Notes: generated from the sequence alone by a model not told the origin. Counted from the first letter of the stretch, positions 4,429 to 40,512 are shown. The stretch is DNA of 42,369 bases from a bacterium (GCA_021836035.1 JAKBJL010000001.1:1-42369); one strand, 5' to 3'. Numbers and translations: made by a program.

Positions 4429-4864
4429 TTTCAATTTTCAATTAATTTACCATGACGAAACTAGCAAACAAATACGATTCAGAGGAAAGAGCGGCCAGAT
4501 TCGGTGAAGAAATAATTACCTTTTGTAAAACTTCCCGGGGGGATGTGACTATCGGCACGGTAATCAACCAAATCATCCGTTCCGCAACCGGTATCAGGGC
4601 GAATCGCTGTGAAACCGGCGGGGCCGGTTCCAAAACCACTCCCAGAAATAAAAATTTTCTCCGCCGGAAGGAAGCTCGGGAAACCAAACATTGGCTAAGA
4701 GTGTTTGCCGCCTGTTACCCCGGGAAAAACGTACCCCTAGGAAACTTCTGGCCGGAAACCCGGAAATTCGTATTAATATTTCAAAAATTTCCAGCTCCCT
4801 TAAGGTTTGAAAATTGAGAGGATGAAACATTCAGTAAAAATTGAAAATTGGAAATTGAAAATTA
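4429..4864. repeat. Heptamer-periodic inverted repeat arms flanking the four-helix-bundle gene
   Basis: TTTCAATTTTCAATT (4429-4443) is complementary to AATTGAAAATTGGAA (4839-4853, 14/15). TCAATTTTCAA (4431-4441) is perfectly complementary to TTGAAAATTGA (4807-4817). Confidence 0.75.
4452..4817 (+). CDS. Four-helix-bundle protein (23S rRNA IVP / bAvd-like family), appears degenerate
   Basis: KYDSEERAARFGEEIITFCK...NQIIRSATGIRANRCE...KEARETKHWLR fits the family pattern (QxxRSxxSIGANYxE...KEARETxHWL) with several non-conservative changes. Confidence 0.8.
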   Translation: MTKLANKYDSEERAARFGEEIITFCKTSRGDVTIGTVINQIIRSATGIRANRCETGGAGSKTTPRNKNFLRRKEARETKHWLRVFAACYPGKNVPLGNFWPETRKFVLIFQKFPAPLRFEN

Positions 4865-26176: not shown

Positions 26177-26249
26177 TAAGCTTATAGCTAATAGCAAATG
26201 ACTCGGGGCTTCTAAGGCTTCGAGTTTGAAGCTATTAGCTATTTGCTAT
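26177..26249. terminator. Probable bidirectional terminator hairpin extended by heptamer arms
   Basis: Lies between convergent genes. Inner stem ACTCGGGGC...GCTTCGAGT (26201-26225). Outer ATAGCTAATAGC (26184-26195) is perfectly complementary to GCTATTAGCTAT (26231-26242). Confidence 0.65.
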
Positions 26250-26929
26250 TTACCCCGATAAAGTCGGGGTTTACCGAAGTTTAAAAAATAAACCTCCACG
26301 GGAGAAAGGGCTGCCGGGATCTTCAGGCCAAATTGGCTGACAAATCTCCCTTTGTCTAGTATTTTCCTTCCCCGGCATTTCAAGCCGGCTACTTCAGTCA
26401 GTTTCAGGAATTTACTCAGAGAGTATTGCCGGACCTGGGGAAAATTGATCATTCGACAAGCTGCCATTAACAAAGGATATCCGGTTTCTTCGACTATCTC
26501 CAGATATCGGGGCAAAAAGGATTCCACGACAAGAATTTCCCCTCCGGGCTTGAGAACTCTTTTAATTTCCGCTAATCCCCCTATTACTGAACGGTCAGTC
26601 TCGTCCAGCGTTTTCTCCGCCAGATGGTGAAATAGAAACTGCGCCAGAACGGTGTCAAAACGGCCGGCAGGCAGCGATAAATACCGTACGTCGGAAACCA
26701 AATGTCGGTGTTTAACTGGAAGCTTTATCCTGACCGAAAATAAATCTACGGTAGTCAGACTATCTACCCTGGCCAAATCATAATTAACCACCCCTGCAGA
26801 ACCGACATCCAGAACTTCGCCTTTAACCGCGGGACTTATTACCCGGCTGATATTTTTATAGAGATCTCCCAGACCCGTTTCCGTTTGCCGGGCATAATTG
26901 CGCCAGAACCGAGCGTAATTTCTCTTCAT
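26246..26929 (-). CDS. Class I SAM-dependent methyltransferase
   Basis: VLDVGSAG, FDTVLAQFLFHHL, EIKRVLKPGG. Confidence 0.85.
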   Translation of the reverse strand: MKRNYARFWRNYARQTETGLGDLYKNISRVISPAVKGEVLDVGSAGVVNYDLARVDSLTTVDLFSVRIKLPVKHRHLVSDVRYLSLPAGRFDTVLAQFLFHHLAEKTLDETDRSVIGGLAEIKRVLKPGGEILVVESFLPRYLEIVEETGYPLLMAACRMINFPQVRQYSLSKFLKLTEVAGLKCRGRKILDKGRFVSQFGLKIPAALSPVEVYFLNFGKPRLYRGK

Positions 26930-27675
26930 CTTTTTTGCACCAGAACCAATAGCGAAACTCCAAAAGGCAAGTCAAAATATTTTAATAGCTCATTTTCGGT
27001 TCGCAAAATCCACAGCAAAACGCTATTCAAGACGCCGGGTACTAACAGCAAATCGGTCTTAATCCGGGCCTTATCCCCTGCCAAGCGCTCCAAACTTGTT
27101 CTTAAAAGCCACCAGGGAAAAAAGAAGGAAATAAAATAGCTGCTTTTTTTTATTTTAAAACCCCTGTCCTCCAATGGCCGTTGCAAATCTTCCCGCCGGT
27201 AGCGCCGGAAATGCCCCAGCCTTTTATCCCGGCTGCTCCAAAGCGAAGGAAAGGCCGGCACAGTAACCAAAAAATAACCCCCGTTTTTTAAGACTCTATT
27301 TATTTGGTCCAGTACTTTCTCTTCGCTATTAATATGCTCTAATAAATCCAAGGCGATCACAACATCAAAAAAGCGATCAGAATAAGGCAAATGGTTTGCC
27401 ACTCCCCTCTTGATTTTTAATTTTTGCTGCCGGCAAGCAGCAACCGCCCGAGCGGACTTATCGATACCAAATCCTCCGGCGCCTTTTTTTTGTAATTCCG
27501 CGAGCAGCAACCCCGAACCGCAGCCAAGATCCAGAATTTTTTTCCCCCGTAAACTTCCGCTGAAACGAACCAGTAATTCCCCAACCAATTCCCTACGCCC
27601 CCGCGACCACCAATAATCCCGGTCCGCTTGATAATGCAGGTTCCAGTCGTAGTTGGTTATAGCTATTCTAGCCAT
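26926..27675 (-). CDS. Class I SAM-dependent methyltransferase (type often found beside glycosyltransferases)
   Basis: YWWSRGRR, ILDLGCGSG, LDLLEHI, TVPAFPSLWSSRDKRLGHFRRY. 4-bp overlap with the next gene. Confidence 0.9.
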   Translation of the reverse strand: MARIAITNYDWNLHYQADRDYWWSRGRRELVGELLVRFSGSLRGKKILDLGCGSGLLLAELQKKGAGGFGIDKSARAVAACRQQKLKIKRGVANHLPYSDRFFDVVIALDLLEHINSEEKVLDQINRVLKNGGYFLVTVPAFPSLWSSRDKRLGHFRRYRREDLQRPLEDRGFKIKKSSYFISFFFPWWLLRTSLERLAGDKARIKTDLLLVPGVLNSVLLWILRTENELLKYFDLPFGVSLLVLVQKR

Positions 27676-28521: not shown

Positions 28522-31113
28522 TTACTCGCCTTCTTTATCCCACCATTGGCTGATCCCCTTTAGAGGGTGCATCTTTAGGTGTATTTGACGTTTACCGAGA
28601 AACCAGAAAAGAAGAGCTAAAAAAGTAGCTATCGAAACCAAATAGCCCAACTTTTCGACAGGGCCTAAGGAGTATTGAAAAGTAATTTTATCGCCCGCCT
28701 GCGCTTTTGCCAAAGGAACGTACATAAAACCTGGTCCCGCCCGGTAAATCCTTGCAGTTCGGCCATTTATCAAAGCCCCCCAATTACCGTTAGTAAGCTC
28801 CCTCAATAATACCCCGCCTCCCCGGCTGCTATCTGCCTTAATCTCGATCTCCCGGCTCTCCGGGTTTGGGAACCTGGCTTCATAATTAATCTCCCTGCCG
28901 GGCTCTCCAGTTAAAGCCAAATATATATCCGTCAATAACTCAGTTTCCTGAAGATTCTTCCGCTGGTCGAGGTAATAAGGCAAATTCATCCCTGACCAGA
29001 CAACTTTCCCTCGCTGCCAATTGCCTGCGACAACTAGTGGCCGATCTTTGCTAGTTAAAAGAATCCGGCTGTTTTTCACTAAATCGCTGCCGAGTTGCAC
29101 CTTCCAGGGGCTTTCGCCTGAAGTAGTAGACCCGAAAGGGGCGCTCAGTCCCCAATCCCCTTTCAATTCTCCTGCCGTCAGTTTTTTCACCGGAAGAAAT
29201 ACCGGCAAAGGCCTATCTCCCCAAGGATTCCCCTCAATATAAACATTGCCTCCAGCAGCAAGGTATTGTTCTATAAGTTTACTTTCCGCCATCTGATCCT
29301 TAAATTTCGCTTCATATAAAATAATGAGATTAAACTTTTTCAACTCTTCTAGATTATATCCGGATAAATTCGTGCCGCCCTGTAAAGGTAACAGCTTGGA
29401 AGAATTCACATTAGCCCGCGCTAAAGCACGAAAAATAATATCAAACTGCGCTCGCCCGCCGGTAATTACGAGGGCCGTAGGAACGGTAACTACGGAAAGA
29501 ATGGGTTCGGGTTTTAAATATTCGAAAGCTTTAAAATCCCGGTTTTCTCCCAAAGATTTAATGGGGATATTCTCTGCTGAAAACTTCTGATAATCATCAG
29601 TCTGGGAAACTAAAAATTTATCCACCGCCCACCAATCAAGTAAAAAAAGAGCCTCGTTAAGGTTATTCTTTTGGTGCCAAATAGTTTGCTGAAAATAGAA
29701 ATATGCGTTGGGGTCAGTGATGCAATTGGCGCAATAGTCCCTGGTTTGCGGTAAGTGCGGGTAAAGAATATTAAACCAAACGGCAAGACGCCCATAATCG
29801 CCAGTTCCAAAGCGATACCGCGGTGTATCTTGAAGTTGCATATTCTGGAAAAGCTCACTCCTAGATAGCGGCCGTTCAAACGGGGCGCGCGACATGGGAC
29901 TGCTTAACGGAAATTGTAAAAAAAGCCAGAGCAATAAAAGTCCCATTCCCAATAGGGAGATAACATTAAGAACCAACCGCCTACTTTCTAAAATTGTGGC
30001 ATTGATAACGCCAGCCAAAATGAGAGCAAAAAAGGCTAGGAAGGGTAAAAGCCATTTCGGAAGCCAAATCCCGCCATATATCAAACCTAAAAAGGGAAAA
30101 AGCACCATAGTGTACACCGTTAATCCCCCAACCAACATTAAGATGCCTAGAATAAACTTACCCGACAGATCCTGAGGAATCTTTCTCCGCACAAAACAAA
30201 AAGCCAACAAGATCATACTAAGCAAAAAAACAGAAACCAAGACCGGCTGTAAGGTCCAGAGGTAGGGAATCTGAAAACTATAATGATCAACAATCTGATT
30301 GCCGGGTCGAATAAGGAAAAGAAGATCTCTTAAATATGCTACGTTTCCCTGCGGGGCTAGCTTTGCTGGAGCAGAAAACGGGAAACCGGGAAATCCCAGT
30401 ATTACCGGCGGTAACATTTCAAAAGCGCTTAAGAGAAAACCGGGTATTGCTACTTTGACAAAACTGCCGATAGCGTCCCACAAATTACGATCATAGATCA
30501 GGCCCCAATAGAGCAAAACCAGCAGTAAAACAAATCCCGTTAGCCCTTGGATCGCAAAAGTCAGACCGATAAAAAACACGGTAAAAAGAAAATTGTGCCG
30601 GTTATTCTTTTCTTGTAAATAACTGATAAAGGCCCAGAGCGCCAAGGAAAAGGGCGCTAGGGCAAAAAAACGTTCATAAAGTCCGCTTTCAAAACTCCAT
30701 CCCCACAAGGCCGGAGTTGCAACCAGGCACATCGCCAGAAATAACGGCAGCAGAAATTTACCGGTCAGGCGATTAATAATCAGATACAAACCGAAAGCCA
30801 GAATCCCGGCAGAAAAAACCGTCATAAAGTTAAGGGTAAATTCTGCACTTACATGAAAAAGATTAGCGAAGGAGGCCATTACGGCGTATGGAAAAACGAC
30901 GGGATACCAGGTAAAAAATGCCATGCCCCCCGCCCAAACCGGTAACCACCAGATATGCGGCCAAAACTGCTGGATTAACTTAAGTTGGAAAATGTGGACA
31001 TTAGCATCCCAACCGCGGGGATATCCCGCCCAGCCATAAATCAGATAACTAACCAGAAAGGCAAAACCAAGGAGAAGAACCAGAGAGAAAAGGTGGGAAA
31101 AAATATTTTTCAT
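28522..31113 (-). CDS. GT-C-fold (YfhO / 6-PTPS-related membrane domain) glycosyltransferase-like protein with a large extracytoplasmic domain
   Basis: GWDANVH, WWLPVWAGG...WYP, many hydrophobic segments, C-terminal NWGALING...AGPGFMYVPL plus a final TM helix. Confidence 0.75.
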   Translation of the reverse strand: MKNIFSHLFSLVLLLGFAFLVSYLIYGWAGYPRGWDANVHIFQLKLIQQFWPHIWWLPVWAGGMAFFTWYPVVFPYAVMASFANLFHVSAEFTLNFMTVFSAGILAFGLYLIINRLTGKFLLPLFLAMCLVATPALWGWSFESGLYERFFALAPFSLALWAFISYLQEKNNRHNFLFTVFFIGLTFAIQGLTGFVLLLVLLYWGLIYDRNLWDAIGSFVKVAIPGFLLSAFEMLPPVILGFPGFPFSAPAKLAPQGNVAYLRDLLFLIRPGNQIVDHYSFQIPYLWTLQPVLVSVFLLSMILLAFCFVRRKIPQDLSGKFILGILMLVGGLTVYTMVLFPFLGLIYGGIWLPKWLLPFLAFFALILAGVINATILESRRLVLNVISLLGMGLLLLWLFLQFPLSSPMSRAPFERPLSRSELFQNMQLQDTPRYRFGTGDYGRLAVWFNILYPHLPQTRDYCANCITDPNAYFYFQQTIWHQKNNLNEALFLLDWWAVDKFLVSQTDDYQKFSAENIPIKSLGENRDFKAFEYLKPEPILSVVTVPTALVITGGRAQFDIIFRALARANVNSSKLLPLQGGTNLSGYNLEELKKFNLIILYEAKFKDQMAESKLIEQYLAAGGNVYIEGNPWGDRPLPVFLPVKKLTAGELKGDWGLSAPFGSTTSGESPWKVQLGSDLVKNSRILLTSKDRPLVVAGNWQRGKVVWSGMNLPYYLDQRKNLQETELLTDIYLALTGEPGREINYEARFPNPESREIEIKADSSRGGGVLLRELTNGNWGALINGRTARIYRAGPGFMYVPLAKAQAGDKITFQYSLGPVEKLGYLVSIATFLALLFWFLGKRQIHLKMHPLKGISQWWDKEGE

Positions 31114-31865
31114 TCTCTATTAGTTTTACCATTAGTTGTTATATGTTCCGGTAAGATAATGTGGTAAAGCCTGCGGATACGGAGAAGCTCCCGAAAAATC
31201 GCCAGCGACTTAGAAAGATTGTATTTTATCCGTGTATCGGGATTATGGGTCCAATCGGCCGGGACCTCCGCAATTTTGGCCCCCGCCCGGTGCGCCAGAA
31301 GCAAAAATTCCAAGTCAAAAAGAACGCTGTTGGTTTTTACCTTAGCAAAGGCTTTTTTCCCGATACTCGTTTTGAAAAGTTTAAAACCGCATTGGGGATC
31401 AGCTACTCCGTACGCCAGGAGAAATTTGGAAAGGGTTCCGAAAGATTTTCCCAGAAGCTCCCGGGGAAATCCCTGGCTTTGCAGGACTTTTGCTCCGTGC
31501 TTTTCCCGGGAAGCGACGCTTATATCATGGCCTTCCGTAATCGGTCCCCACAATTGATCAAAGTACCTTATGGGAACAGAAAGATCGGCATCCGTAAATA
31601 AAATATAATCCCCTTTGGCAGCTTTGACTCCGGTCCGCACCGCTGCCCCCTTACCGAGATTACAATGATGGCTAATAAGCTTAATATTCGGAGATTTTTC
31701 GGCTAACTGCCTAACCACAGCCGCGGTTTTATCTATGGAACCGTCATCAATAACTAGTATTTCATAGTTAATCTTGGCCGCTCTAAAAAATCTTCTGATT
31801 TGTTCTATCGTTCCCCCAATTCTCTCCGCTTCGTTAAATGCCGGAATGATTATAGTTAAAAGCAT
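31110..31865 (-). CDS. Polyprenol-phosphate glycosyltransferase (GT2, Dol-P-Glc/Man synthase-like)
   Basis: IIIPAFNEAERI, IDDGSIDKT, NLGKGAAV, FTDADLS, DPQCGFKLF, FDLEFL. ATG at 31865 preferred. Confidence 0.9.
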   Translation of the reverse strand: MLLTIIIPAFNEAERIGGTIEQIRRFFRAAKINYEILVIDDGSIDKTAAVVRQLAEKSPNIKLISHHCNLGKGAAVRTGVKAAKGDYILFTDADLSVPIRYFDQLWGPITEGHDISVASREKHGAKVLQSQGFPRELLGKSFGTLSKFLLAYGVADPQCGFKLFKTSIGKKAFAKVKTNSVLFDLEFLLLAHRAGAKIAEVPADWTHNPDTRIKYNLSKSLAIFRELLRIRRLYHIILPEHITTNGKTNRE

Positions 31866-33885
31866 GCCGTAGATAATATACAAAAAATATCGCAGAAAGA
31901 ATACTGACGAGAAAACTTATTAAAACATCCGTGGTGGGAGAAAAAGAAAGCTTTATTTCTGCCGCAGCGTTATGAATATTTATAAACCCGATCGGGTCCG
32001 ACTCAATCTCCAGCTGCTTTCCACTTTTATCAAAAGCCGACCAGCCCGGCTGATACGAGATTCTAACCAGGAGATCGTGGGGGTTATCCGGAGCAAAAAC
32101 CGTCATCTGCGACCAATTATTCCCCAAGGGGTAGTTGATTCTCAAAGATTCGGCACTCTCTACCCGTCCTAAATATTTTTCCAGTCTTTCTTTATCTAAA
32201 ACAATTTTACCGGATTTTAAGTTATCTGGCTGGCTAAACGTTTTAGCCCAACCCGGTTCCAAGGCCAAAGCTAAAGAGGTATTTGTTGACGGAACTTCAT
32301 AGATAATATCGCCTTCGTATTCATAAACATTTCGAAGCCAGCTGTATTTTCCCGGGTAAGTGTAATCTTTGAAGTAAACCCGGGAATCAGCGGTATTCAC
32401 GACAATATACTTAATACCCAAAGCCTGTAACCAATTAAGAGCAAGCTTCCCATCCGCTCCCTTAAGCAACTGATAGCTTATATGGGCCCACCAGGGATTT
32501 AAGCCTCCGAAATCACCGCCCTTGACCCCCCGCAGTTGGGGAACATTAGTAAAAACATTCAACCATTGCGAGTGGGTTCCCGTAGCATAGACGCGCGTCC
32601 TCGCACTATGTTCCTCTAACCAACGGGCTACCCGATACTCGCTGCTTTGAGAAATATCACTATTGGGTTTTGCCAGATTCGAGAAATTATCAATTCGGGG
32701 AAGGATAAAAATTCCGACCAGAAAAAATAATACGCCCCAGAACGCGATTCGAAGATATTTATTAATTCCCAAATCGCATTCTGTTGCTAAAAGACTGGCT
32801 AGGAAAAGCGCTGAGGAGAGATCTAGCTCGGGCCCGAAACGTTGTAGATAATCATGAGGAAGCGGAAGTAAGGAAAAATCGTAACGGTATTGTAAAAAAA
32901 TCAGGAAAAAGAAAAGCAGAGACCAAATTGCCGTGAGAACGAACGGGAAACTACGAACATTTTTTTGGATTAGATATTTAAGGGAAAAATATATGGTAAC
33001 CAAAGCCGGAAATATCACGAAAATGATAAAGACCGGGTTGCGATACATTCCCCTAACAATTCCCCCCTCCTGAGCAAAACCAATCGCCGCCTCAAGGAAA
33101 GAAGGGTTATACCAAAATAATCCCAGTCCCAAGACAAATAGGGCAACTGCGAAAGCCTGTTTGAGCGTATGGCTACCTGCTCCTCTGGCCATCTCCAGCA
33201 TCAATAAAACTAACACCATAATAACCAGCGGCATAAAAGCCGTAGAAGAAGTTAATAAAATAAACAGAAATGTCATGACACTTGAGAAAAACCAATTTTT
33301 TTGTCCCGTCTCCAGCAGCTTTTTGAAACAAAGCAAAGCTATGGGTAAAACCGCTATACCCCAGGTATGTGCCCCTTCCCCGAAGTAAATCAGAACCAGC
33401 AAGCGCCAGGGTAAAAAATTAAAACCCTGCATAAATTGGGCAATTGGAGAAATTAACAGCGTTCCTAGTGGTATAGCAGAATAAAGCAGGGCGGCAAAAA
33501 ACGCCGGTAGGTTCTTCTTGATCAGCTCTTTGGCTAAGAAGAAACAGGAAATGCTTCCCAAAGTGTAAGCTATACCTATACTTATCCGGTAAATCCCGCC
33601 GGGGTTCACCCCGGAAACAAAACTTGCCAACGCTATAGAAAACGGCACAATCGGTTGGTAGACAAGATAAAATGGAAAGCCAAAATACCAAAACGGATGC
33701 CAGATAATATGTGGGAAACTTTCTAAAATGAATTTCACGTAGGCCAAATATTGGCTTTCAATAGAAGGCATGACCGCGGTATATTCCCCCGTAAACAGCA
33801 AGCGGGTAAAAATTAGGTTCAAAACGGCAAGCAACAATACCGGCAAGCCTCCCGCTAAAATGGCTTTTATCCTGTTATTCTTCAT
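31834..33885 (-). CDS. GT-C-fold (YfhO-like) membrane glycosyltransferase-like protein
   Basis: WHPFWYFGFPFYLVYQP, GEGAH, FWYNPSF, PQLRG, LQALGIKYIVV, VRISYQPGWSA...DPIGFINI. Confidence 0.75.
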   Translation of the reverse strand: MKNNRIKAILAGGLPVLLLAVLNLIFTRLLFTGEYTAVMPSIESQYLAYVKFILESFPHIIWHPFWYFGFPFYLVYQPIVPFSIALASFVSGVNPGGIYRISIGIAYTLGSISCFFLAKELIKKNLPAFFAALLYSAIPLGTLLISPIAQFMQGFNFLPWRLLVLIYFGEGAHTWGIAVLPIALLCFKKLLETGQKNWFFSSVMTFLFILLTSSTAFMPLVIMVLVLLMLEMARGAGSHTLKQAFAVALFVLGLGLFWYNPSFLEAAIGFAQEGGIVRGMYRNPVFIIFVIFPALVTIYFSLKYLIQKNVRSFPFVLTAIWSLLFFFLIFLQYRYDFSLLPLPHDYLQRFGPELDLSSALFLASLLATECDLGINKYLRIAFWGVLFFLVGIFILPRIDNFSNLAKPNSDISQSSEYRVARWLEEHSARTRVYATGTHSQWLNVFTNVPQLRGVKGGDFGGLNPWWAHISYQLLKGADGKLALNWLQALGIKYIVVNTADSRVYFKDYTYPGKYSWLRNVYEYEGDIIYEVPSTNTSLALALEPGWAKTFSQPDNLKSGKIVLDKERLEKYLGRVESAESLRINYPLGNNWSQMTVFAPDNPHDLLVRISYQPGWSAFDKSGKQLEIESDPIGFINIHNAAAEIKLSFSPTTDVLISFLVSILSAIFFVYYLRHAFNYNHSGI

Positions 33886-35189
33886 GAGCGTAAAGATTTT
33901 CCGGTTCGGGGATAAATTTCCAGTAAAACTAACGCCGCAAGCGTTACGAAGGTCAGCAGGTCTCCGATTACGCGGGACCAGCCGTCAAAGCCGTCTTTGG
34001 CGAGCCACAAATGGCTTTTGGCGGTTTGGTCTAAACCTTGCGCCAATTCTTCTCCGGCCGGCAGCGCCGTCTTCCCGCCCATCCAGATAATCAGGGTAAT
34101 TAATACTACGGCGATAAGGAGTCCCGCCATGTTCGGCCAGGGGAAGCGGTTTTGCAGAGTATCGTTAATTTTTACCGTGGCCATCCCCGCCAAAAGCGCT
34201 AAAGCGATGCCCAGCTCCGGGTAGTAGCGCGAGGAACTGGACGAGAGAAAGCCGTGCAGGCCGGCCATGGCGATTAGAACAAAAACAATCGTCCAAAAGC
34301 TTGCCAGAAATACCGGCTGGAGGTTGGCCTTGCGGTCAAAAAGCAGGAAACCGAAAGCCCCCAGGACGGGAACGATAAAAAGCGACAGCGGAATCAGGTT
34401 CGCTAAAACCTGGCGCATTTCGCGGCCCAGCGGCCCGGAGACCATCCACCAGGCAAAGACCGGGTTATACCAAAATGCGGCCAGGGCCCCGGCGATCAGA
34501 AAAACTATCAGGAAGCGTAATAGTTTCAACCGACCGTGTCCTAAAAGCATTTCCGAAAAAGCGGCCAGCACCGCGAAAATCAAATAGGTCAGAAAGCCGA
34601 AGGGTGAAATTAAAACTATCGCCGTGCTCAAGAAGGCCGCGATTAATAAATTGTGGCGGCCGCCGAATCTTAAAAAAGCCATCAGGCTGTAAATCGCCAG
34701 GGGCATTATCCCAAGGCTTGCTATATGCGGCCCGTCATTGCCGGTAAATCCGGCTGACAACCGGCTCTTGGCAAAAAAGTATTCGGGAACAGTGGCCGTT
34801 AAAACCGCAATAATTGCCGCCAGTTTCCGGCCGGTCAAAAAGGAGATCAGGAAGTAAAAGGTTACCGGGAAAAACAGAAAGAAGAGAATCTGCACCAGCT
34901 GTACCGCATAAATAAAGGGCAGGCTGACAATGCGGGAGAGTAAGTTGGCCAGATACGGAATTGCCGGCCCGGAAAAGGGGGCAATCACCGCGGCTGTTCC
35001 CATCAGGGGAGCAGTCAGATAATAATTCAGGGCGACCAGAACAATTAGCGCAGTAAATTCGACCAGTCTCCCTCCCCATTTCCCGGGAGTAACGAGCCCC
35101 GGCAGCCTGCTTTCCCGCAGCCGCTCGCTGATCCGCCGGGCCCGTTTCGCGGCAATGGTTTCCTGAGTTTGCGGAACTATATTTTCCAT
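33882..35189 (-). CDS. Shorter GT-C-like polytopic membrane paralogue
   Basis: GNDGPH, FWYNPVF and RYYPELG parallel motifs in 31834-33885. ATG at 35189 (MENIVPQ), preceded by GGAG, preferred as start. Confidence 0.65.
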   Translation of the reverse strand: MENIVPQTQETIAAKRARRISERLRESRLPGLVTPGKWGGRLVEFTALIVLVALNYYLTAPLMGTAAVIAPFSGPAIPYLANLLSRIVSLPFIYAVQLVQILFFLFFPVTFYFLISFLTGRKLAAIIAVLTATVPEYFFAKSRLSAGFTGNDGPHIASLGIMPLAIYSLMAFLRFGGRHNLLIAAFLSTAIVLISPFGFLTYLIFAVLAAFSEMLLGHGRLKLLRFLIVFLIAGALAAFWYNPVFAWWMVSGPLGREMRQVLANLIPLSLFIVPVLGAFGFLLFDRKANLQPVFLASFWTIVFVLIAMAGLHGFLSSSSSRYYPELGIALALLAGMATVKINDTLQNRFPWPNMAGLLIAVVLITLIIWMGGKTALPAGEELAQGLDQTAKSHLWLAKDGFDGWSRVIGDLLTFVTLAALVLLEIYPRTGKSLRS

Positions 35190-36559
35190 AAAATATCTCC
35201 GTTTCCTTCCCAGACTTTTTGCCCGATATCCTCCCATTTTCGCAAATTTTTAAAGTCATGATAATACTCAAATGAGTCCGGGCCGCTGACGAGTACATAT
35301 GACACGCCAAGTTCCCGTAATGCTGCCAGGGTTTCTTCCGGGCCGCTTCCCTCGCGGATAAGATAAGCCGCCCGTGCCCAGCTTTTTTCTACCGCTGCCT
35401 CGTCCCTTCCTCCCCGGACCTGGTAAAAATCCGCCAGGGCGTTGGACCAAAAAACCGGCGTCCCCGAGAAAAATACCCGCCGGTCCCCGACAATTTCCTT
35501 GATCTCTCCCATTTCCGCTACCAGCTTAGTGGTTTCCCCTAAGTTCCTTATAACCCCCAACTCCCTTGTTGTAAAAGCGGATACAGCCACGGCCATAATT
35601 ATGGGGGCCAAAGCTAGCCGCCGCTTACCGATTGTTATGATCGCTAACCACACTCCGATCTCCAATTCTCCAAACCAGGCAATCCAATCCAGCCAAAAAT
35701 CCGGATCGGCCAAAAGGCGGAAAAGCGTCAGGGCGAGAAAACTAACCAGCCAAATCAGGGCAAACCTTCTTAGCCGGTCAGCTTTCTTATCCAAAAAAGC
35801 TGCTGCGGCAACCGCCAGTCCCACCGGAAGGATAGTCCGCAACCAGTTAAGCAGTTTCCCTGCCAGCACGATCATTCCTTCCCCGCCCAACGAGGAATTG
35901 CCTAAAATGGTCAGCCAAAAACCGGGGGTATACCAAACAGTAGATAGTGCAAGGGCAAGAGCAAAGACAACAAGCAAATGACGGACTGAAACAAAAGGTT
36001 CCCCGGTGGTTGCCAGAAGGGCGATTACTCCTATGAGCATTGTCGGCAGGATGCCCGTATTCGTCAGGAGCAAAAAAGTCAGAGCAACTACCGCGAGGAG
36101 CAAATTCCTTACCGAACGCCTGGCCAGGTAAAAATCCAGAGCGATTAGCCCCCAAGGAAAGAGAGCCAAGGCAAGCGCCGCCGACACCTCGTTTAAAGCA
36201 TACGCCGAGAGGTATTTCCAGGGCAGTACGAGGAAGATTACTATATAAAATAGTATCTTTCTGTCTCTGACTAGCTTCGGGTTTTGGTCAGCCAGCTTCG
36301 AAACCAAAATGCTCCAACCGATAGCAGAAAGAATAAAGCTTAAAGCTATTAGCCAATAGCTTAAAGCTAGGAACGCTTGCCCGGGAAATAACTTATGCAG
36401 TAAAACCAGAAGTATCGGCACCACCGGACCAATGAGATACTTAACCGGCGTCGTCCCCAGGTACCAGTAGGGATACAGGCCGGAGAAGCCATGGGCCGCA
36501 ATGAACCTGGTAAGCGCCAGCGTTACCGGTATTAATGATGTCGTCGGCGGATAAAACAT
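35177..36559 (-). CDS. GT-C-like polytopic membrane paralogue
   Basis: LYPYWYLGTTPVKYLIGPVVP, VWYTPGFW, YQVRGG, LRELGVSYVLV...YYHDFKN parallel motifs in 31834-33885. Confidence 0.7.
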   Translation of the reverse strand: MFYPPTTSLIPVTLALTRFIAAHGFSGLYPYWYLGTTPVKYLIGPVVPILLVLLHKLFPGQAFLALSYWLIALSFILSAIGWSILVSKLADQNPKLVRDRKILFYIVIFLVLPWKYLSAYALNEVSAALALALFPWGLIALDFYLARRSVRNLLLAVVALTFLLLTNTGILPTMLIGVIALLATTGEPFVSVRHLLVVFALALALSTVWYTPGFWLTILGNSSLGGEGMIVLAGKLLNWLRTILPVGLAVAAAAFLDKKADRLRRFALIWLVSFLALTLFRLLADPDFWLDWIAWFGELEIGVWLAIITIGKRRLALAPIIMAVAVSAFTTRELGVIRNLGETTKLVAEMGEIKEIVGDRRVFFSGTPVFWSNALADFYQVRGGRDEAAVEKSWARAAYLIREGSGPEETLAALRELGVSYVLVSGPDSFEYYHDFKNLRKWEDIGQKVWEGNGDILWKI

Positions 36560-36563
36560 CGGC

Positions 36564-37109
36564 TTATGTTCCCTTTTCCTCTAATACGTACCTATAGGCA
36601 AACCACCAAAAGCCAAAGAGCCAGATAATCGTCAGAAAAGCCGCGAGGTAGTCGTGGTAAATATAGCCGTAAATCGGGCGCAGATAAGCAAAAATCAAAA
36701 CGATCACCGAAAGCCGCGAGAGGTTGATCAGGAAGGTCCCCAGAAGCCCGATTAAAAAAACTTCCAGGACAGAGCCGATAGTATAGCGGCTGTCCCGCAA
36801 CCCGGCCAGAAGGGTAATAAAAAAAAGCAGGAGGCTCTGCCACCCTAAACAATTCCAGGTCATTTCCAGAAAAGTAGCGTTGACCATAAATCCGTTAGTG
36901 TAAGTAACAATTTTCAAAGGAAAAGGCGACAGCAGCAGGGCGACCATGCCTACTTCTATCGGGACGAGATATTTTTGCAGAGCATGGTAAAGAATAAACC
37001 GTTCCGCTAATTTTGTCAGAGCCTCGTTAAAAGTTAGCATCAACGGCAGCAAGGCCAAAAATATAGCCAGGAGCGCAAAGATTACGCTAAAAGTCTTTTT
37101 AGGCCGCAA
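36564..37109 (-). CDS. Exosortase/archaeosortase family transpeptidase
   Basis: Polytopic 181 aa with the catalytic-triad pattern: Cys in EMTWNCLGWQS (36849-36851), Arg in INLSRL (36714-36716), His in YHD (36654-36656). TTG start overlaps the upstream gene's end. Confidence 0.85.
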   Translation of the reverse strand: MRPKKTFSVIFALLAIFLALLPLMLTFNEALTKLAERFILYHALQKYLVPIEVGMVALLLSPFPLKIVTYTNGFMVNATFLEMTWNCLGWQSLLLFFITLLAGLRDSRYTIGSVLEVFLIGLLGTFLINLSRLSVIVLIFAYLRPIYGYIYHDYLAAFLTIIWLFGFWWFAYRYVLEEKGT

Positions 37110-40100
37110 GGGGGGTTCGCCTCCTCTCTTTCAGCCAAAGAATTGTGCCGATAAGAACCGGAGCGGCTGCCAGGAGAATGAAGCTATTTTCCGGGACGGT
37201 GATAGCCGAAGGAGGCTGAATATTACTGATATAGTTGGCAGCGGAGCCATCGTAGCCTAAATTATAGCTCCCGCCGGCACCGGCGGCGGTTCCGATGATC
37301 TCAAAATACAGACGGCAGGGCGAAGCTTCGGTACAAGTGTAGCCGGAAGTAACGCTGGCAGTCTGGGCGTGCAAACCGAGAGCAGTCGAAGGAGTATATT
37401 GGATATTACTGCTGGTTCCCAAAACCGTGTAAGTAGCTCCGGTCCCGCAAGGGTCCCCCGTCCCGCCGCTGCAATAGCCCACCACAAAATTCCAGGTAAT
37501 AGTTTTACTGCCGGTGGGTTGGAGGGCAACATAATCGTTATATGTCCAGGTCCCGGACGGAAGGGGAACCGTTCCTGTCCCGGTCGGCAGTTTTTGGGAG
37601 TACCAGTAAGCCGTTGTAGTTTTGGTTACTGTCAAGGTAGCGTTGCTTGCTCCCGACGTAGCCCCCCGCATACTTTTCCCGACATTGACCACACCGGTTG
37701 ACAAATCAAAGCCGATTTCGTCAGTAGCGCTGTTCCAGAAATAAAAATTCGTCACGGTGGAAGCATAAGTGCTGGGAGCTCCGCGGGTTAGGGAAAAAAG
37801 CGTCACCGTCAAAATAAGAACCAGGGCTAATACTGCCCTGCCTATAAAACGCCGGCCCCGGTACCTTATGGTAAAGCGGTTAAAACGGTTGTTCGCCGAA
37901 GCAAGTGCCAGATAGGAATTAACTTCATATGCCGCCGCGGGTAAAGCCGGGGTAGGGGTAGATACCCCCCGCCCGCCGAAGATCCCGGAAATCAGCCGGT
38001 AGAAACGCCCGCGGGTAAAGACGTCCGTAATCCGCCCCGTTTTCGGCGTCCGGAACCAGGGCCCTTCCCGGCTTTCCAGAAAACCTTTTACCGAAGCGTA
38101 CGCCTGAAACGGCACGACCAAATAGGAAAGGGCTATAAAGCTGGCGATACCCAGATAATCCTTTTCTTCCGATTCTTCTAGAAATAATCCCACCACATTT
38201 ACCAAGGGCAGGGAAAGCATGTTGGTTAAAACCAGGGACCATCCCCAAAGCGCCGTCCAGAAAGGCAGGCGGGCGCCGAAAACTACTTCCGAAAAAAGCC
38301 AGGATAAAGTTCCGGCCAAAAAGAAGGCCGCCTGGAGGTAGTAAGGCGCAAGATAAAAAACTTCGACCTTCTCCGGAGCCGTCAGCCTATTAGAGGCCAA
38401 AAGTTTCGCCACCATTTTGCGGATATTGTTGCTGTGCCCCTCCGCCCAGCGCATTCTTTGCCTCACCAGTCTTTGCAGGGTGGAAACGCATTCGGCCGGA
38501 GCCTGGATGTAGGGGGTATAGACCACTTTGTATCCTTTCTCATAAAGCTTCAGCGTTAACTCAAAGTCCTCGGTAATAGAGGTCCCCCAGCCGACTTCTT
38601 CGAGAGGTGCCCGCCGGATCATATAGACCGATCCGGAAATCATTTTTAGTCCGCCGTAAAGCTCGGTCCCCGCCCTTTCAATGACATAGCTGCCGGCGTA
38701 TTCGCTCCTGACCCCCCGGGTTATCCAATTCTCCGATTTGTTTAAAACGTGCCATTGATAGCCCTGGACCGCCGCTACATTAGAGCGTTGGTAATCCTCG
38801 CGCATGTTGTTTTGGACCTTAAAATACTTCAAAAAGAGGGTTAGGGTGTCCGGATACGGGACAAAATCGGCATCAAAAACGGCGATAAACTCCGTGCGCG
38901 GGTCGGTATTTTTTAAAGCCAAGCCCAAGGCGGCCCCCTTATAGCCGCTTCGGCTGGTGCGATGCAGGTGTTTAAGAACCAGACCGGGACGAACTTCTAC
39001 GCTGGACAGAGTAAAGCCGCTGCCCTCCAGGATTTGGACCCGCCCGTATTTTTCCTGGAAACGGCGGATCAGCTGCGGCGTCTCGTCGGTGGAATCATCG
39101 GCGAGCATTACTTCCAAATCCGGGTAATCTAAATTACAGGCCGCTGTGATTGCCCTTTCCACCACATTCTTTTCGTTATAAAAAGGGACCTGCACGGAAA
39201 TTTTGGGGTACTTTTCCAGGCGGACGTGTTCCAGGTTGGGCTCCAACCCCACCGGGTTCCGGCGCAGTCCTCCGTTTTGTCCCCTGTTTCTGATACCCAA
39301 GATCCAGGACAGAAAGCCGCCTCGGCCGATTAACTCATCTTCCCCCTCCGGTGCAAATCCTCCCAGGGTTTTTTGGGAAAAGGAAAGGACAATGGCTAAT
39401 GTTAAATAGTATTTAAGCGAATAGAGGAAAAAGAGGCTGCCGGTAAAAAGCGAAACAGAAGCTAAAACAAGTCCCAGGCCGGAAACAAAAGTGGCGCTTT
39501 CTAGCAGTTTGACCCAATAAATAATAGAAGCGCCGGAAGCTATAGCTATAACCAAAACCCAAATGAGGCTCCTGGTTTGCCTGCCTAGAAGAGAAATTAA
39601 AGCTTGCGGAGGGGGTGCGGGAGCGAAATTGGGAATAAACCGCTGCCAAATTTGTCCGACTTTTTCCCTGAAGGCGGGAAAGATAACCGGCTTTGGAGCT
39701 CTGCTTCCCGCTTTCTCGGCATATTGCCGGCGGTCTTCCTCCCGAGAGAGATTAGCCCGTTCCAGGGCCAGCTGCACGCCGTGATTACCGACATATCCCA
39801 GCCTGGCGGCAATTTGATGGGAAGAGAGTTCCGGCGCAGTAGCTGCCAAACCCAGGATGGCTTTGACGGCGCTTTCCCGCAATCCGCGCGGGTGCATAAC
39901 TCCCAGCGGATGTTGGTCCCCCATCGCCGGAGCCAAAGCCAAATCCTCCTGTTGGGCCGATAGGTAGCGCTTCTTCCACTTGGCAAAAGTTTTCCGCGAA
40001 ACCTTAAATTCCCGGCAAACGGCTCCGGCTTTTTTCCCGAGGATCAGCACGTCTTCGACCATCCGCTTTCGGGCATAAGCGGAAAGGCGGAGATACCCCG

Positions 40101-40512
40101 GGCACTGCCCTTCCCCCAACCCGGGGTTAATCCGGAAATTGCCGGCATAAGTGCGCCTGGCGGAAGCTAAAGTTAAGTTGCGTTTTTTTAACAACAACCA
40201 TATGCTCCGGCAGCTGAATTTTATCCCCTCTTCTTTTAGTTTGTATTCAATTTTTTGCGGACCGAATTCGGGATGGCCTACGACGATTTTTAGTATTTCA
40301 CGCTCGATATCTGCGGGCTGGCGGTATTTTATAAAATTGATCTTATCCTGTCTTTTCTGACTCTCCTCTGCCTGATTTCGGCGGTAGCTGGCGAGCCACA
40401 GGTAGAGCGTTTTCCGGGATATTCCTAATTTCGCGGCTGCCTTAGTCTTTTGTAGCTTTCCGATTGCGACCCTTTTTAATATTCCCCGTTGGCTGGAAGA
40501 AAAGGCTGGCAC
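37099..40512 (-). CDS. Fusion protein: tandem IS481-transposase-like HTH modules, cellulose-synthase-like GT2, extracellular domain and PEP-CTERM-like (VPEN) sorting tail
   Basis: HTHs: AAAKLGISRKTLYLWL, HPEFGPQKI...SCRSIWLLLKK, VCREFKVSRKTFAKWKKRY, APELSSHQIA...GNHGVQLALER. GT2 motifs: DDSTD, YKGAAL, FDADF (DAD 38866-38874), TED (38566-38574), QRMRW (38446-38460), RTPK. C-terminus: VPEN (37186-37197), hydrophobic helix, KERRR. Confidence 0.85.
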   Translation of the reverse strand: MPAFSSSQRGILKRVAIGKLQKTKAAAKLGISRKTLYLWLASYRRNQAEESQKRQDKINFIKYRQPADIEREILKIVVGHPEFGPQKIEYKLKEEGIKFSCRSIWLLLKKRNLTLASARRTYAGNFRINPGLGEGQCPGYLRLSAYARKRMVEDVLILGKKAGAVCREFKVSRKTFAKWKKRYLSAQQEDLALAPAMGDQHPLGVMHPRGLRESAVKAILGLAATAPELSSHQIAARLGYVGNHGVQLALERANLSREEDRRQYAEKAGSRAPKPVIFPAFREKVGQIWQRFIPNFAPAPPPQALISLLGRQTRSLIWVLVIAIASGASIIYWVKLLESATFVSGLGLVLASVSLFTGSLFFLYSLKYYLTLAIVLSFSQKTLGGFAPEGEDELIGRGGFLSWILGIRNRGQNGGLRRNPVGLEPNLEHVRLEKYPKISVQVPFYNEKNVVERAITAACNLDYPDLEVMLADDSTDETPQLIRRFQEKYGRVQILEGSGFTLSSVEVRPGLVLKHLHRTSRSGYKGAALGLALKNTDPRTEFIAVFDADFVPYPDTLTLFLKYFKVQNNMREDYQRSNVAAVQGYQWHVLNKSENWITRGVRSEYAGSYVIERAGTELYGGLKMISGSVYMIRRAPLEEVGWGTSITEDFELTLKLYEKGYKVVYTPYIQAPAECVSTLQRLVRQRMRWAEGHSNNIRKMVAKLLASNRLTAPEKVEVFYLAPYYLQAAFFLAGTLSWLFSEVVFGARLPFWTALWGWSLVLTNMLSLPLVNVVGLFLEESEEKDYLGIASFIALSYLVVPFQAYASVKGFLESREGPWFRTPKTGRITDVFTRGRFYRLISGIFGGRGVSTPTPALPAAAYEVNSYLALASANNRFNRFTIRYRGRRFIGRAVLALVLILTVTLFSLTRGAPSTYASTVTNFYFWNSATDEIGFDLSTGVVNVGKSMRGATSGASNATLTVTKTTTAYWYSQKLPTGTGTVPLPSGTWTYNDYVALQPTGSKTITWNFVVGYCSGGTGDPCGTGATYTVLGTSSNIQYTPSTALGLHAQTASVTSGYTCTEASPCRLYFEIIGTAAGAGGSYNLGYDGSAANYISNIQPPSAITVPENSFILLAAAPVLIGTILWLKERRRTPLAA

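Follow-up and report, generated by a model that had tools for sequence, protein, structure and literature searches.

What becomes of the last 255 residues of a bacterial membrane synthase that seem to carry export and sorting signals of their own, with an exosortase-family gene as the next gene? The question is raised by a window of 42,369 nucleotides (GCA_021836035.1, JAKBJL010000001.1:1-42369) from an uncultured CPR bacterium, whose genome is 97.9% complete. In the initial annotation of this window, the C-terminal part of a GT2 protein was described as a signal-like stretch, an S/T/G-rich domain with four Cys and a VPEN-TM-basic tail, and translation and family conservation confirm that unit.

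Architecture of the synthase gene and its neighbors

Translation of positions 37099-40512 on the minus strand gave a single open, continuous frame of 1137 codons. The features of this frame and of the genes behind it, in window coordinates, are as follows.

39613..40512, minus: N-terminal cytoplasmic region, residues 1-300, with two helix-turn-helix units, like the N-terminus of an IS481-type transposase
39379..39567, minus: first two membrane helices, residues 316-378 (hydropathy peaks at 316-334 and 345-378)
38383..39225, minus: processive GT2 catalytic domain, residues 430-710 (motifs DDS, DAD, TED and QRMRW)
38023..38382, minus: post-catalytic hydrophobic helices and conserved EGPWFRTPKTG motif, residues 711-830 (three hydropathy peaks, 728-804)
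37852..38022, minus: basic linker, residues 831-887, assigned to the cytoplasm by charge count and ending in the RYRGRR n-region
37762..37851, minus: internal signal-peptide-like helix and c-region ending T-Y-A, residues 888-917 (hydropathy 2.3; AF2 helix 888-910)
37207..37761, minus: predicted extracytoplasmic jelly-roll beta-sandwich (ectodomain), residues 918-1102, 185 aa (AF2 fold and composition)
37099..37206, minus: sorting tail, residues 1103-1137 and stop (AIT-VPEN, hydrophobic helix with a mid-helix Pro, KERRR)
36564..37109, minus: exosortase/archaeosortase-family gene, 181 aa, TTG start (protein P0002), overlapping the synthase stop by 11 nt
28522..36559, minus: downstream same-strand genes, comprising four polytopic membrane proteins (35177-36559, 33882-35237, 31834-33885 and 28522-31113) and a small GT2 (31110-31883; PF00535, 1.2e-33)

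Residues 1-300 matched the Pfam families HTH_23, HTH_28 and HTH_Tnp_1, as well as the NCBIfam IS481 transposase model with an E-value of 1.1e-22, under the cut-off of that model. The catalytic domain matched PF13632, PF13641 and PF00535, with BcsA as its best solved relative (E 1.6e-11, alignment over 435-694). Residues D472, D473, D547, D549, T647-E648-D649 and Q685-R-M-R-W689 were invariant among 12 aligned sequences, and these motifs, together with the flanking membrane helices, place the protein among processive membrane GT2 synthases of the BcsA/PgaC/NodC type. Scores fell far under every NCBIfam equivalog cut-off (PgaC, 91 vs 422; CelA, 82 vs 699). The most conserved region was residues 711-830, with a mean identity of 75% across 11 relatives. 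The AF2 model of the full-length protein, built from a 12-row alignment, was poor (pLDDT 57.6, pTM 0.36), so our count of the membrane passes that separate the GT2 domain from the linker follows the charge rule and the analogy with BcsA. The loop spanning residues 805-889 contains 15 K/R and 4 D/E.

Internal signal-like helix and ectodomain

Residues 883-1137 run from a basic cluster and hydrophobic helix ending in T-Y-A, through the ectodomain, to VPEN, a second helix and KERRR. The first part, residues 883-917, reads RYRGRRFIGRAVLALVLILTVTLFSLTRGAPSTYA in translation. It can be divided into an RYRGRR n-region, an h-region FIGRAVLALVLILTVTLFSL and a c-region TRGAPS-T-Y-A, the composition of a type I signal peptide; such peptides stand at the N-terminus of a precursor, whereas this one begins at residue 883 of 1137, with a polytopic enzyme ahead of it. 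We propose a candidate signal peptidase I site after Ala917. This -1 residue is Ala in all 12 of the close relatives compared, and 69 of 84 relatives have an [AVST]-x-A site 3-18 residues past the helix core. In 500 composition shuffles the same site was expected 31.4 +/- 4.0 times with a maximum of 42, a 2.2-fold enrichment that could partly reflect position, since the shuffle control retains positional bias and small residues may be favored near the membrane interface. As a positional control on one helix, the site followed the first membrane helix of the same proteins in 16 of 53 cases. The remaining 15 of the 84 relatives lack a strict [AVST]-x-A site, several of them carrying I or L at -3. 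At 23 residues in the AF2 model and with a hydrophobic stretch of about 17-19, this internal helix is long and could serve as a stable anchor instead of a cleaved signal. Three sequences in the genome score above the signal peptidase I cut-off, one of which contains an internal stop. Together, these comparative data lend weight to the earlier suggestion that signal peptidase I may act here.

The ectodomain is S/T/G-rich, with S+T+G accounting for 75 of 185 residues (40.5%) vs 19% in residues 1-874, and contains four Cys at 1014, 1022, 1060 and 1066. The AF2 model of the C-terminal module consists of a helix, a beta-sandwich and a helix (pLDDT 89.1, pTM 0.78). In structural comparisons with VIA, the modeled sandwich was closest to residues 363-555 of 8yzn_A, the C-terminal beta-sandwich of a CocE/PepX-type hydrolase (Z 13.9, rmsd 2.9, 152 aligned). 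Five more hydrolases of the PepX, CocE/NonD and aminopeptidase kinds followed at Z 8.1-11.5, and Foldseek recovered the same hydrolases with an E-value of 4.6e-5. Matches to CBM15, CBM36, CBM6 and CBM35 gave Z 5.9-7.3, with CBM15 at 7.3, and BcsB gave Z 7.3 and 6.5, the tool's range for a common arrangement. By its model, the ectodomain is a jelly-roll of the galactose-binding-domain-like/CBM-type class, a shared fold that shows no function.

The ectodomain is also the fastest-evolving part of the protein. Its mean identity across 11 relatives was 25% vs 65% for the GT2 domain, and the length past the synthase core varied from 302 to 2071 aa, with unrelated domains occupying that region, in keeping with the hypervariability foreseen for it. 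Because 15 K/R precede the internal helix and KERRR follows the last helix, residues 918-1102 would lie outside the cell, as far as the positive-inside rule tells. This check, by hydropathy and charge in place of SignalP/DeepTMHMM, thus returned no cytoplasmic placement, the outcome named in the initial annotation as refuting its reading.

Sorting tail and adjacent exosortase

In the tail, VPEN (residues 1106-1109, window 37186-37197) is followed by the hydrophobic stretch SFILLAAAPVLIGTILWL, then KERRRTPLAA and the stop codon. The C-terminal end has all three parts of a PEP-CTERM-like tripartite signal (motif, helix and basic cluster), with V-P-E-N in place of the near-invariant Pro-Glu-Pro. 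P1107 and E1108 were invariant among 12 aligned sequences. Among 69 unique tails of relatives, P occurred in 69 and E in 66, preceded by V in 39 and I in 25; the commonest residues after E were N (25), K (9), F (6) and R (5). An HMM built from these 69 tails found the synthase tail as its sole match among the 7908 ORFs of the genome (E 7.2e-8; next best, 0.19).

Curated models gave no match to this tail. NCBIfam yielded nothing for the last 45 or the last 263 residues at E <= 10, and Pfam yielded no sorting-domain family over the whole synthase protein at E <= 0.01. The PEP-CTERM domain model TIGR02595/PF07589 was not matched either, short models being easily lost to HMMER filters.

The next gene has an AGGAGG 10 nt ahead of its TTG start, and this start aligns with the Met starts of homologues. 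Its product, P0002, belongs to the exosortase/archaeosortase family, matching TIGR04178 over residues 82-171 at 29.3 bits against a cut-off of 23 (E 7.8e-7). Among the named subfamilies (XrtG, XrtM, XrtP and others), only XrtM gave a match, at 21.9 bits vs 125, and no other Xrt model matched at E <= 10. No curated model for the tail or for the P0002 exosortase subfamily was found in NCBIfam or Pfam, which we regard as an annotation gap. Residues of catalytic type were retained in 46 aligned homologues (C87 in 46, N129 in 42, R132 in 44 and H152 in 44), and C87 and H152 were invariant in a further exosortase alignment too. The conserved Cys87, Asn129-x-x-Arg132 and His152 match the Cys, Asn-x-x-Arg and His that the available text of PMC1569441 ascribes to EpsH.

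P0002 is the only exosortase in the genome. With one exosortase and one such tail, the two form a dedicated pair, and we propose P0002 as the processing enzyme of the VPEN tail. A complex prediction of P0002 with the last 59 residues (205-263 of the 263-aa module) scored 0.00 against a mark of 0.32, a score that is uninformative either way. VPEN had been put forward as a lineage-specific sorting motif. Its [VI]-P-E core does recur throughout the family, with an exosortase alongside; the genome-wide search returned no other such tail, so it is not a general sorting system of the lineage.

Beyond the exosortase, the downstream genes offer leads to possible glycosylation machinery for the exported domain. 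The small GT2 had weak PgfS and PpgS-like matches, and PTPS_related matches among the downstream proteins were weak (E 0.0055 and 0.29). The 460-aa downstream protein resembled the GT-C-type clusters PTPS_related, PMT_2 and STT3, with feature scores of 0.97-0.98 and structural TM values of 0.72-0.85. PDB sequence searches with the 683-aa and 863-aa downstream membrane proteins returned nothing useful.

Conservation of the fused arrangement

Relatives were encoded in 276 of 300 candidate stretches (genome contigs), of which 74 loci were kept. An exhaustive phmmer search found 43 relatives, including full-length library proteins of about 1100-1230 aa, and a word-indexed homologue search with residues 860-1137, limited to lengths of 625-1990, returned only the synthase itself. 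A scan of metagenomes with P0024 gave 52 stretches that matched the pattern, none of which passed tblastn or was confirmed as a relative. An extension of at least 150 aa past WFRTPKTG was present in 49 of 52 closed synthase ORFs, and 46 of these 49 end in P-[ED] (mostly with V or I before it), then a hydrophobic stretch and a basic cluster. Exosortase adjacency was scored in the 46 relatives whose downstream DNA spans 700 nt or more. An exosortase frame started between -151 and +150 nt of the synthase stop in 26 and within 3 kb in 8 more, and was not found in the fetched downstream DNA of the other 12.

In some relatives the C-terminal unit is repeated within one frame. P0010 has three units in tandem, and L079 has four, followed by an exosortase frame; L079-L081 were found by a scan with a closer four-row alignment. 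Every tandem junction keeps both signals, in the order VP[ED], helix, basic cluster, helix, A-x-A and then APD. The ratio of one domain per synthase that had been supposed for the locus is therefore not general.

Frameshifts or in-frame stops occur elsewhere in some relatives (L035 and L031). L035 was considered as a case of split synthase and cargo genes and was rejected, as its frameshift falls at the signal region. Four short library proteins, P0008, P0036, P0042 and P0043, were considered as stand-alone cargo genes; they have their start at the internal signal or slightly ahead of it and may be gene fragments or mis-called starts.

The fused arrangement is a conserved and apparently undescribed family in Microgenomates-type CPR genomes. 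In the literature as far as its text was available, covering exosortases with glycosyltransferases, CPR lineages, XrtG/PEP-CTERM and internal-signal polyproteins, no description of it was found; a mention in Haft 2012 (J Bacteriol) is possible. Among the top-listed papers on exosortases and CPR lineages, none joins an exosortase term with a CPR term.

Proposed processing and alternatives

The whole C-terminal unit is probably an exported surface-protein cassette fused to the synthase. We lean, without great confidence, towards reading the C-terminal 255 residues of this HTH-GT2 synthase as a self-contained cassette of exosortase cargo, processed along the following path. The internal helix 888-910 would insert N-in/C-out after the basic linker, so that the jelly-roll ectodomain crosses the membrane. 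The C-terminal helix and KERRR would then stop transfer and leave V-P-E at the outer membrane face, as hydropathy, charge and the AF2 model suggest. Family membership, adjacency and motif conservation point to the exosortase as the protein that would recognize [VI]-P-E and cut there via Cys87/Arg132/His152. The new C-terminus would be passed to an acceptor, either a membrane lipid, by analogy with ArtA, or the glycan made by the same synthase. Signal peptidase I would probably cut after T-Y-A917, freeing a domain that starts STVTNFYF, a step suggested by the -3/-1 pattern and the tandem-unit relatives. The net outcome would be a synthase and one separate, fast-evolving surface protein, or three or four in the tandem-unit relatives, possibly glycosylated by the GT-C-like enzymes encoded downstream. 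A more specific version, in which signal peptidase I and the mini-exosortase cut a polyprotein into a synthase and one to four surface proteins, and the exosortase joins each domain covalently to the synthase's own glycan as a cap or anchor for that polymer, building a fast-evolving glycoprotein coat on CPR cells, strikes us as unlikely. Excision, glycosylation and re-anchoring of the ectodomain, which we infer here, formed the core of the initial interpretation; that interpretation is partly supported, and none of the three checks run, out of the four it proposed, went against it.

The internal helix might instead stay uncut, with the ectodomain pinned between two helices as a BcsB-like guide or glycan-binding module and the exosortase acting only on the tail, trimming its helix or coupling the C-terminus to lipid or glycan. 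We consider this possible, if rather doubtful. The length of helix 888-910 in the AF2 model would suit an anchor, and a CBM-type jelly-roll matching CBM15 (Z 7.3) and BcsB (Z 7.3, 6.5) would suit such a module, as would the kinship with BcsA, the closest solved enzyme, which works with a membrane-anchored periplasmic partner. The module also appears obligatory, since each of the 49 closed relatives free of visible breaks has the extension. However, a plain anchor has no need of an invariant -1 Ala or of a -3/-1 pattern 2.2-fold over shuffles, nor of the A-x-A retained at every junction of the tandem-unit relatives, and a Z of about 7 to BcsB falls in the range of common arrangements. An ectodomain that evolves far faster than its synthase and is swapped for unrelated domains of 300-2000 aa is likewise a poor fit with a fixed mechanical part.

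That no processing takes place at all, with a structural last helix, a non-catalytic exosortase-like membrane partner and V-P-E as helix cap or docking motif, seems to us quite improbable. Direct biochemical proof of bacterial exosortase catalysis is scant, the mechanism being presented as a hypothesis in the available text of PMC1569441, and the tail matches no curated sorting-domain model. Yet the Cys, Asn-x-x-Arg and His are kept in 42-46 of 46 homologues, as expected of an active enzyme, and tandem-unit proteins repeat the tripartite signal at their internal junctions, where a structural end-helix would be meaningless. Cleavage is described for ArtA, a member of the same superfamily, in the available text of PMC7157517. 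We reject as having almost no likelihood the idea of a chance resemblance or an annotation artefact, such as two genes read through as one frame. Nothing was found in its favor, the frameshifts and in-frame stops of L035 and L031 lying at other places; against it stand the open and continuous 1137-codon frame, the one-frame arrangement in 49 closed relatives and in library proteins of about 1100-1230 aa, and the tail HMM (E 7.2e-8).

Significance

To our knowledge, both the action of exosortases on their cargo and their constant siting beside polysaccharide genes are largely hypothesis in bacteria. This locus offers a minimal natural test case, as cargo, sorting tail and synthase share one polypeptide and the enzyme is encoded directly after it, giving one enzyme and one substrate, both small. 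One gene would probably supply both the synthase and a surface protein distinct from it. Cleavage of the internal signal, if it occurs, would make this a rare instance of bacterial polyprotein processing at the membrane, of which the tandem-unit relatives would be the clearest examples. As far as we know, very little has been learned of CPR cell envelopes. The ectodomain is a candidate CPR surface protein, fast-evolving and possibly glycosylated, and may mediate the contact of an episymbiont with hosts or phages.

Comparison with known systems

Polyproteins cut at an internal signal have precedents. The Bradyrhizobium japonicum FbcH protein is a cytochrome b/c1 precursor that is cut at an internal signal peptide, and in viral glycoprotein precursors one chain is split at the membrane by signal peptidase at an internal signal. 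Here that cleavage is suggested by the comparative pattern; unlike in both precedents, each unit would also receive a sortase-type cut at its opposite end. Relative to BcsA-BcsB (PDB 4hg6, 5eiy and 6yg8), which includes the closest solved relative of the GT2 domain and whose BcsB jelly-rolls match the ectodomain weakly, the synthase lacks a PilZ domain; BcsB is a separate polypeptide with no sorting signal, whereas the cargo here is fused.

The PEP-CTERM/EpsH system (XrtA; Haft 2006, PMC1569441), in the text available, shares with this locus a tripartite signal whose P-E motif lies at the outer membrane face, with helix and basic cluster behind it; a polytopic enzyme carrying Cys, Asn-x-x-Arg and His; and a setting among polysaccharide-synthesis loci. 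Its cargo proteins are also Ser/Thr-rich, little related to known proteins and headed by a signal peptide. The motif differs, being [VI]-P-E-[N/K/...] here and P-E-P there, as does the number of targets per genome, one here vs a median of eight (PMC1569441). Unlike PEP-CTERM cargo, the cargo here is fused behind a GT2 synthase, so that its signal peptide is internal, and the exosortase has just 181 aa, unlike that of the EpsH/XrtA system. The host is a CPR bacterium, whereas PEP-CTERM is described, in the same available text, only in bacteria with an outer membrane.

The XrtG/Firmicu-CTERM system of Firmicutes, in the available text of PMC12854382, pairs an exosortase-family enzyme with a single neighboring cargo, as here. 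Both settings include a GT2 and PTPS-related-type membrane glycosyltransferases, and both belong to lineages not known for an outer membrane. The XrtG cargo is a separate gene, whereas here it is fused; P0002 gave no match to the XrtG model, and the GT2 scored 29 bits vs 364 against TIGR03111, the XrtG-associated GT2 of NCBIfam. The ArtA/PGF-CTERM system of Haloferax volcanii resembles the present one in enzyme superfamily and tripartite signal. According to the available text of PMC7157517, ArtA cleaves and lipidates its substrates, cleavage being coupled to covalent lipid attachment, a coupling that may hold here as well. ArtA differs in being archaeal, in its PGF motif and in having many substrates, none of them, in that text, fused to a synthase. 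One of these substrates, HVO_0405, is cleaved by ArtA at a centrally placed, mid-chain tripartite site, as the tandem-unit relatives of this family would require.

Architecture of the synthase and its C-terminal cassette

The gene analyzed here encodes a GT2 synthase with a DNA-binding front and, at its C-terminus, a secreted-protein-like cassette (residues 883-1137) whose coordinates were verified by translation. The unit proposed in the initial annotation (a basic, hydrophobic and small-x-Ala signal, an S/T/G-rich domain with four Cys and a VPEN-TM-basic tail) is exact in the translation.

Features of the synthase locus

37099-40512 (-), synthase ORF, 1137 codons, GTG start, with the cassette at its 3' end
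39613-40512 (-), two HTH units like the front of IS481-type transposases (Pfam HTH_23, HTH_28, HTH_Tnp_1; NCBIfam IS481, E = 1.1e-22, below cut-off)
residues 316-378 (-), two membrane helices (hydropathy)
within the synthase (-), GT2 domain of the processive kind (PF13632, 3.6e-19; PF13641, 4.7e-19)
residues 728-804 (-), three hydrophobic segments, followed by a conserved EGPWFRTPKTG motif
residues 805-889 (-), basic loop, 85 residues, 15 K/R
residues 883-917 (-), internal signal RYRGRR-FIGRAVLALVLILTVTLFSL-TRGAPSTYA (translation)
residues 918-1102 (-), ectodomain, 185 residues, between internal signal and sorting tail
after residue 1102, to the C-terminus (-), sorting tail AIT-VPEN-SFILLAAAPVLIGTILWL-KERRRTPLAA (translation)
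36564-37109 (-), exosortase-family ORF, 181 aa, TTG start, 11-nt overlap with the synthase stop
downstream of the exosortase gene (-), four polytopic membrane proteins and a small GT2

The closest solved relative of the GT2 domain is BcsA (E = 1.6e-11, residues 435-694). Ser, Thr and Gly account for 75 of the 185 ectodomain residues (40.5%, versus 19% elsewhere in the synthase), and the cysteines are at 1014, 1022, 1060 and 1066. The DNA-binding front, placed on a membrane enzyme, might serve as a regulator tethered to the membrane or as an allosteric module. It resembles the HTH region of a transposase like that encoded about 15 kb away by a 291-aa ORF (21535-22410 (-); rve integrase core plus HTH units, IS3/IS481-type). 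In some relatives, P0010, P0020 and P0046 among them, a response-regulator receiver-like N-terminus (judged by eye) takes its place; the regulatory front of the family is exchangeable.

Conservation of the cassette

A word-indexed search for cassette homologues returned nothing beyond the query itself. An exhaustive phmmer search with the last 263 residues against 1.84 billion representatives identified 43 proteins with E <= 1e-3 (16 at <= 1e-10, 4 at <= 1e-30), many of them 900-1230 aa long, with the match at the extreme C-terminus and the same HTH-GT2 front. Of 44 sequences, counting the query, 36 carry the tail by a strict pattern; when the eight misses were read individually, six contained the motif with a charged residue breaking the hydrophobic stretch, one (P0021) was truncated and one (P0011) had a different end.

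Among genome contigs, 276 of 300 candidate stretches encoded relatives, and 74 loci were kept, almost all from Microgenomates-type CPR assemblies (Woese-, Davies-, Curtiss-, Chisholm- and Gottesmanbacteria), often with at least two copies per genome. Three of their 52 closed synthase frames terminate prematurely and seem broken: the GT2 region of L031 contains an in-frame stop (7747-7749) and L035 has a frameshift exactly at the internal signal (about 8550-8592), both of which may be assembly errors or decaying copies, and L060 has a masked stretch. In 46 of the remaining 49, the C-terminus consists of P-[ED] followed by a hydrophobic stretch and then a basic cluster; the exceptions (L024, L059 and L034's second ORF, which contains masked bases) all look truncated. 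In 69 unique tails, Pro is universal (69/69), followed by Glu in 66 and Asp in 3 and preceded by Val in 39 or Ile in 25, with a mid-helix Pro in 59; P1107 and E1108 are invariant in a 12-sequence full-length alignment. At the level of sequence, these comparisons establish the cassette and its conservation.

Pairing with a dedicated exosortase

The adjacent 181-aa protein scored above the cut-off of the NCBIfam exosortase/archaeosortase signature (TIGR04178, 29.3 bits versus 23). A Pfam scan gave no match, and the sole exosortase subfamily match, XrtM, was below cut-off (21.9 bits versus 125). In an alignment with 45 related-locus homologues, C87 (46/46), N129 (42/46), R132 (44/46) and H152 (44/46) are kept, as also in the exosortase alignment A3; these correspond to the Cys, Asn-x-x-Arg and His that Haft 2006 named for EpsH (PMC1569441). 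The TTG start aligns with a Met start in many homologues. An AGGAGG at 37120-37125 (-), 10 nt before the TTG at 37109, is Shine-Dalgarno-like and built from two Arg codons of the synthase basic cluster, so that the sorting-tail coding sequence is predicted to double as a translation signal for its own processing enzyme.

We counted pairing in the 46 closed relatives for which 700 nt or more of DNA beyond the synthase was available, taking exosortase frames from stop to stop, so that each distance is a minimum for the true start. The frame begins -151 to +150 nt from the synthase stop in 26 and lies within 3 kb in another 8; the downstream DNA of the other 12 gave no exosortase, and searching with an HMM made from the hits brought no more. 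Some loci (L024, L052, L059, L073 and L007) have two genes of the exosortase family, arranged in tandem or on either side of the synthase, and L030 has two copies of the synthase and, within the DNA retrieved, no exosortase.

The query's own genome (97.9% complete) has one exosortase. Its ORFs of 80 aa or more number 2927; a helix with basic residues closes 46 of these, with V-P-E in the synthase alone, and a tail HMM run against 7908 ORFs found only the synthase (E = 7.2e-8; next best 0.19). VPEN had been suggested as a lineage-specific sorting motif: as [VI]-P-[ED] the tail is indeed family-wide, but a search of this genome for other VPEx-TM-basic ends yielded none. With one enzyme and one tail, the two form a dedicated one-enzyme, one-substrate pair, a pairing that the gene order and genome-wide counts establish. 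The same genome also seems to hold an LPXTG-type system: in a 234-aa ORF (C3, (-)) and a 209-aa ORF (C4, (-)), the C-terminus has the layout of a classical sortase substrate, with LPPTG or LPQTG ahead of a hydrophobic stretch and basic residues.

Topology and fold of the ectodomain

Both the N-terminal DNA-binding units and the GT2 domain have to lie in the cytoplasm. The loop leading into the internal helix is highly basic, and KERRR comes after the last helix; by the positive-inside rule, the internal helix would run in-to-out and the last helix out-to-in, placing residues 918-1102 outside and V-P-E at the outer face. An outside ectodomain, which we regard as very probable, requires that the three segments at 728-804 together cross the membrane an even number of times. 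In BcsA, one comparable segment is an interface helix preceding the cytoplasmic gating loop. The AF2 model of the full-length synthase was poor (pLDDT 57.6) and did not settle these crossings.

The last 263 residues (31-row alignment) were modeled with pLDDT 89.1 and pTM 0.78, giving a helix (888-910), a beta-sandwich (917-1107) and a second helix (1111-1136). In an exhaustive structural search, the best ectodomain match was 8yzn_A (PaL) residues 363-555 (Z 13.9, rmsd 2.9, 152 residues), and the next five (Z 8.1-11.5) were all hydrolases: the X-prolyl dipeptidyl aminopeptidases 6nff and 1lns, the archaeal aminopeptidase 4pf1, the cocaine esterase 3i2f and the CocE/NonD-family hydrolase 3ib3. 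Lower matches included CBM15 (Z 7.3), CBM36, CBM6 and CBM35 (about 6-7) and BcsB (7.3 and 6.5), the weaker ones being in the range that the tool rates as common arrangements. Foldseek likewise ranked cocaine esterases, PaL and a CocE/NonD hydrolase at the top (E = 4.6e-5; 19 matches with E <= 1e-3). The modeled ectodomain thus belongs with the jelly-rolls of galactose-binding or CBM type, a fold likeness that gives no function.

Divergence and tandem units

The initial annotation asked whether the ectodomain is hypervariable while the GT2 domain is conserved, and this is so: across 11 relatives, mean identity to the query is 25% (range 11-38%) versus 65%, with 75% for the post-catalytic helices, 39% for the tail and 40% for the internal signal. 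Past WFRTPKTG, the 49 closed relatives extend by 302 to 2071 aa (222 in L024, which ends early), and phmmer with the query ectodomain matched 9 locus frames only. By these alignments, the cassette ends are kept and the content between them is swapped, the content being fast-evolving and of predicted jelly-roll fold. In P0018 (669 aa) and P0022 (1218 aa), the jelly-roll unit is broken up or lengthened by large inserts, one stretch of P0018 being ConA/LamG-like by eye, which shows that domains insert inside the cassette.

Some relatives carry several units in one frame: three in P0010 (1566 aa) and four in the metagenome contig L079, with an exosortase frame after. P0015, P0018, P0034 and P0044 are fragments of this kind. 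The proposed 1:1 ratio of domain to synthase is accordingly not general. Each unit runs from a basic cluster through a helix, A-x-A then APD and the ectodomain to VP[ED], a helix and a basic cluster, and every internal junction keeps both signals. This is hard to explain if the signals act as topology-setters alone; on sequence grounds, it fits a chain meant for cutting into pieces.

Proposed processing

Ala917, at -1 of T-Y-A, is invariant in the 12-sequence alignment. In the wider family, the first post-linker helix has a basic cluster before it and V-L-A, V-K-A, S-Y-A or A-Q-A-like sites after it, irrespective of the ectodomain. An [AVST]-x-A site (Pro barred at -2 or +1) lies 3-18 residues past the helix core in 69 of 84 relatives, 4 of 88 rows having been dropped because the detected helix was >110 residues past the anchor. 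Shuffled windows gave 31.4 +/- 4.0 (maximum 42 in 500) and the first membrane helix of the same proteins 16 of 53, both controls leaving positional bias partly in; in several of the 15 relatives lacking the site, -3 is occupied by I or L. Three signal peptidase I matches in the own genome score above cut-off, one containing an internal stop. In sequence, the internal signal conforms to the rules for a type I signal peptide, but it is not N-terminal, and its helix is long. The pattern is that of a cleaved signal, not proof of one; we slightly favor a signal peptidase cut after Ala917, and consider an exosortase cut at [VI]-P-E likely.

Other genes in the window

Three giant ORFs on the forward strand (46-4407, 1453 aa; 4807-12330, 2507 aa; 12669-21389, 2906 aa) are probably large surface adhesins: the 2507- and 2906-aa products each have seven Laminin_G_3 (ConA-like lectin) stretches (E about 1e-131), and the 1453-aa product has a Peptidase_S74 intramolecular-chaperone domain, as in endosialidase-type tail fibres. 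The V-P-E tail is absent from all three. At the far end of the same-strand row as the synthase, two SAM-methyltransferase genes (26246-27675 (-); PF13489, 9.7e-24; PF08241, 1.6e-8) may modify a glycan.

Comparison with known systems

A literature search, covering its sources in part, returned no paper on a synthase-fused exosortase cargo in CPR bacteria. Downstream of the exosortase gene, the small GT2 matches PF00535 (1.2e-33) and two membrane proteins weakly match Pfam PTPS_related (E = 0.0055 and 0.29); the 460-aa membrane protein adjoins PTPS_related, PMT_2 and STT3 clusters in the protein atlas (0.97-0.98 by features, TM 0.72-0.85 by structure). XrtG systems contain an exosortase, its cargo and two glycosyltransferases (PMC12854382), a make-up that this gene set resembles. 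By this analogy, glycosylation of the S/T-rich ectodomain is plausible, as a lead. For cuts at internal tandem junctions, the reported cleavage by ArtA of a centrally placed site in HVO_0405 offers an experimental precedent of the sortase type (PMC7157517). The synthase tail is recognized neither by the curated PEP-CTERM model nor by the P-E-P motif and therefore represents a distinct signal type; together with the 181-aa enzyme, itself a superfamily member, it would work like a PEP-CTERM/exosortase or ArtA/PGF-CTERM pair.
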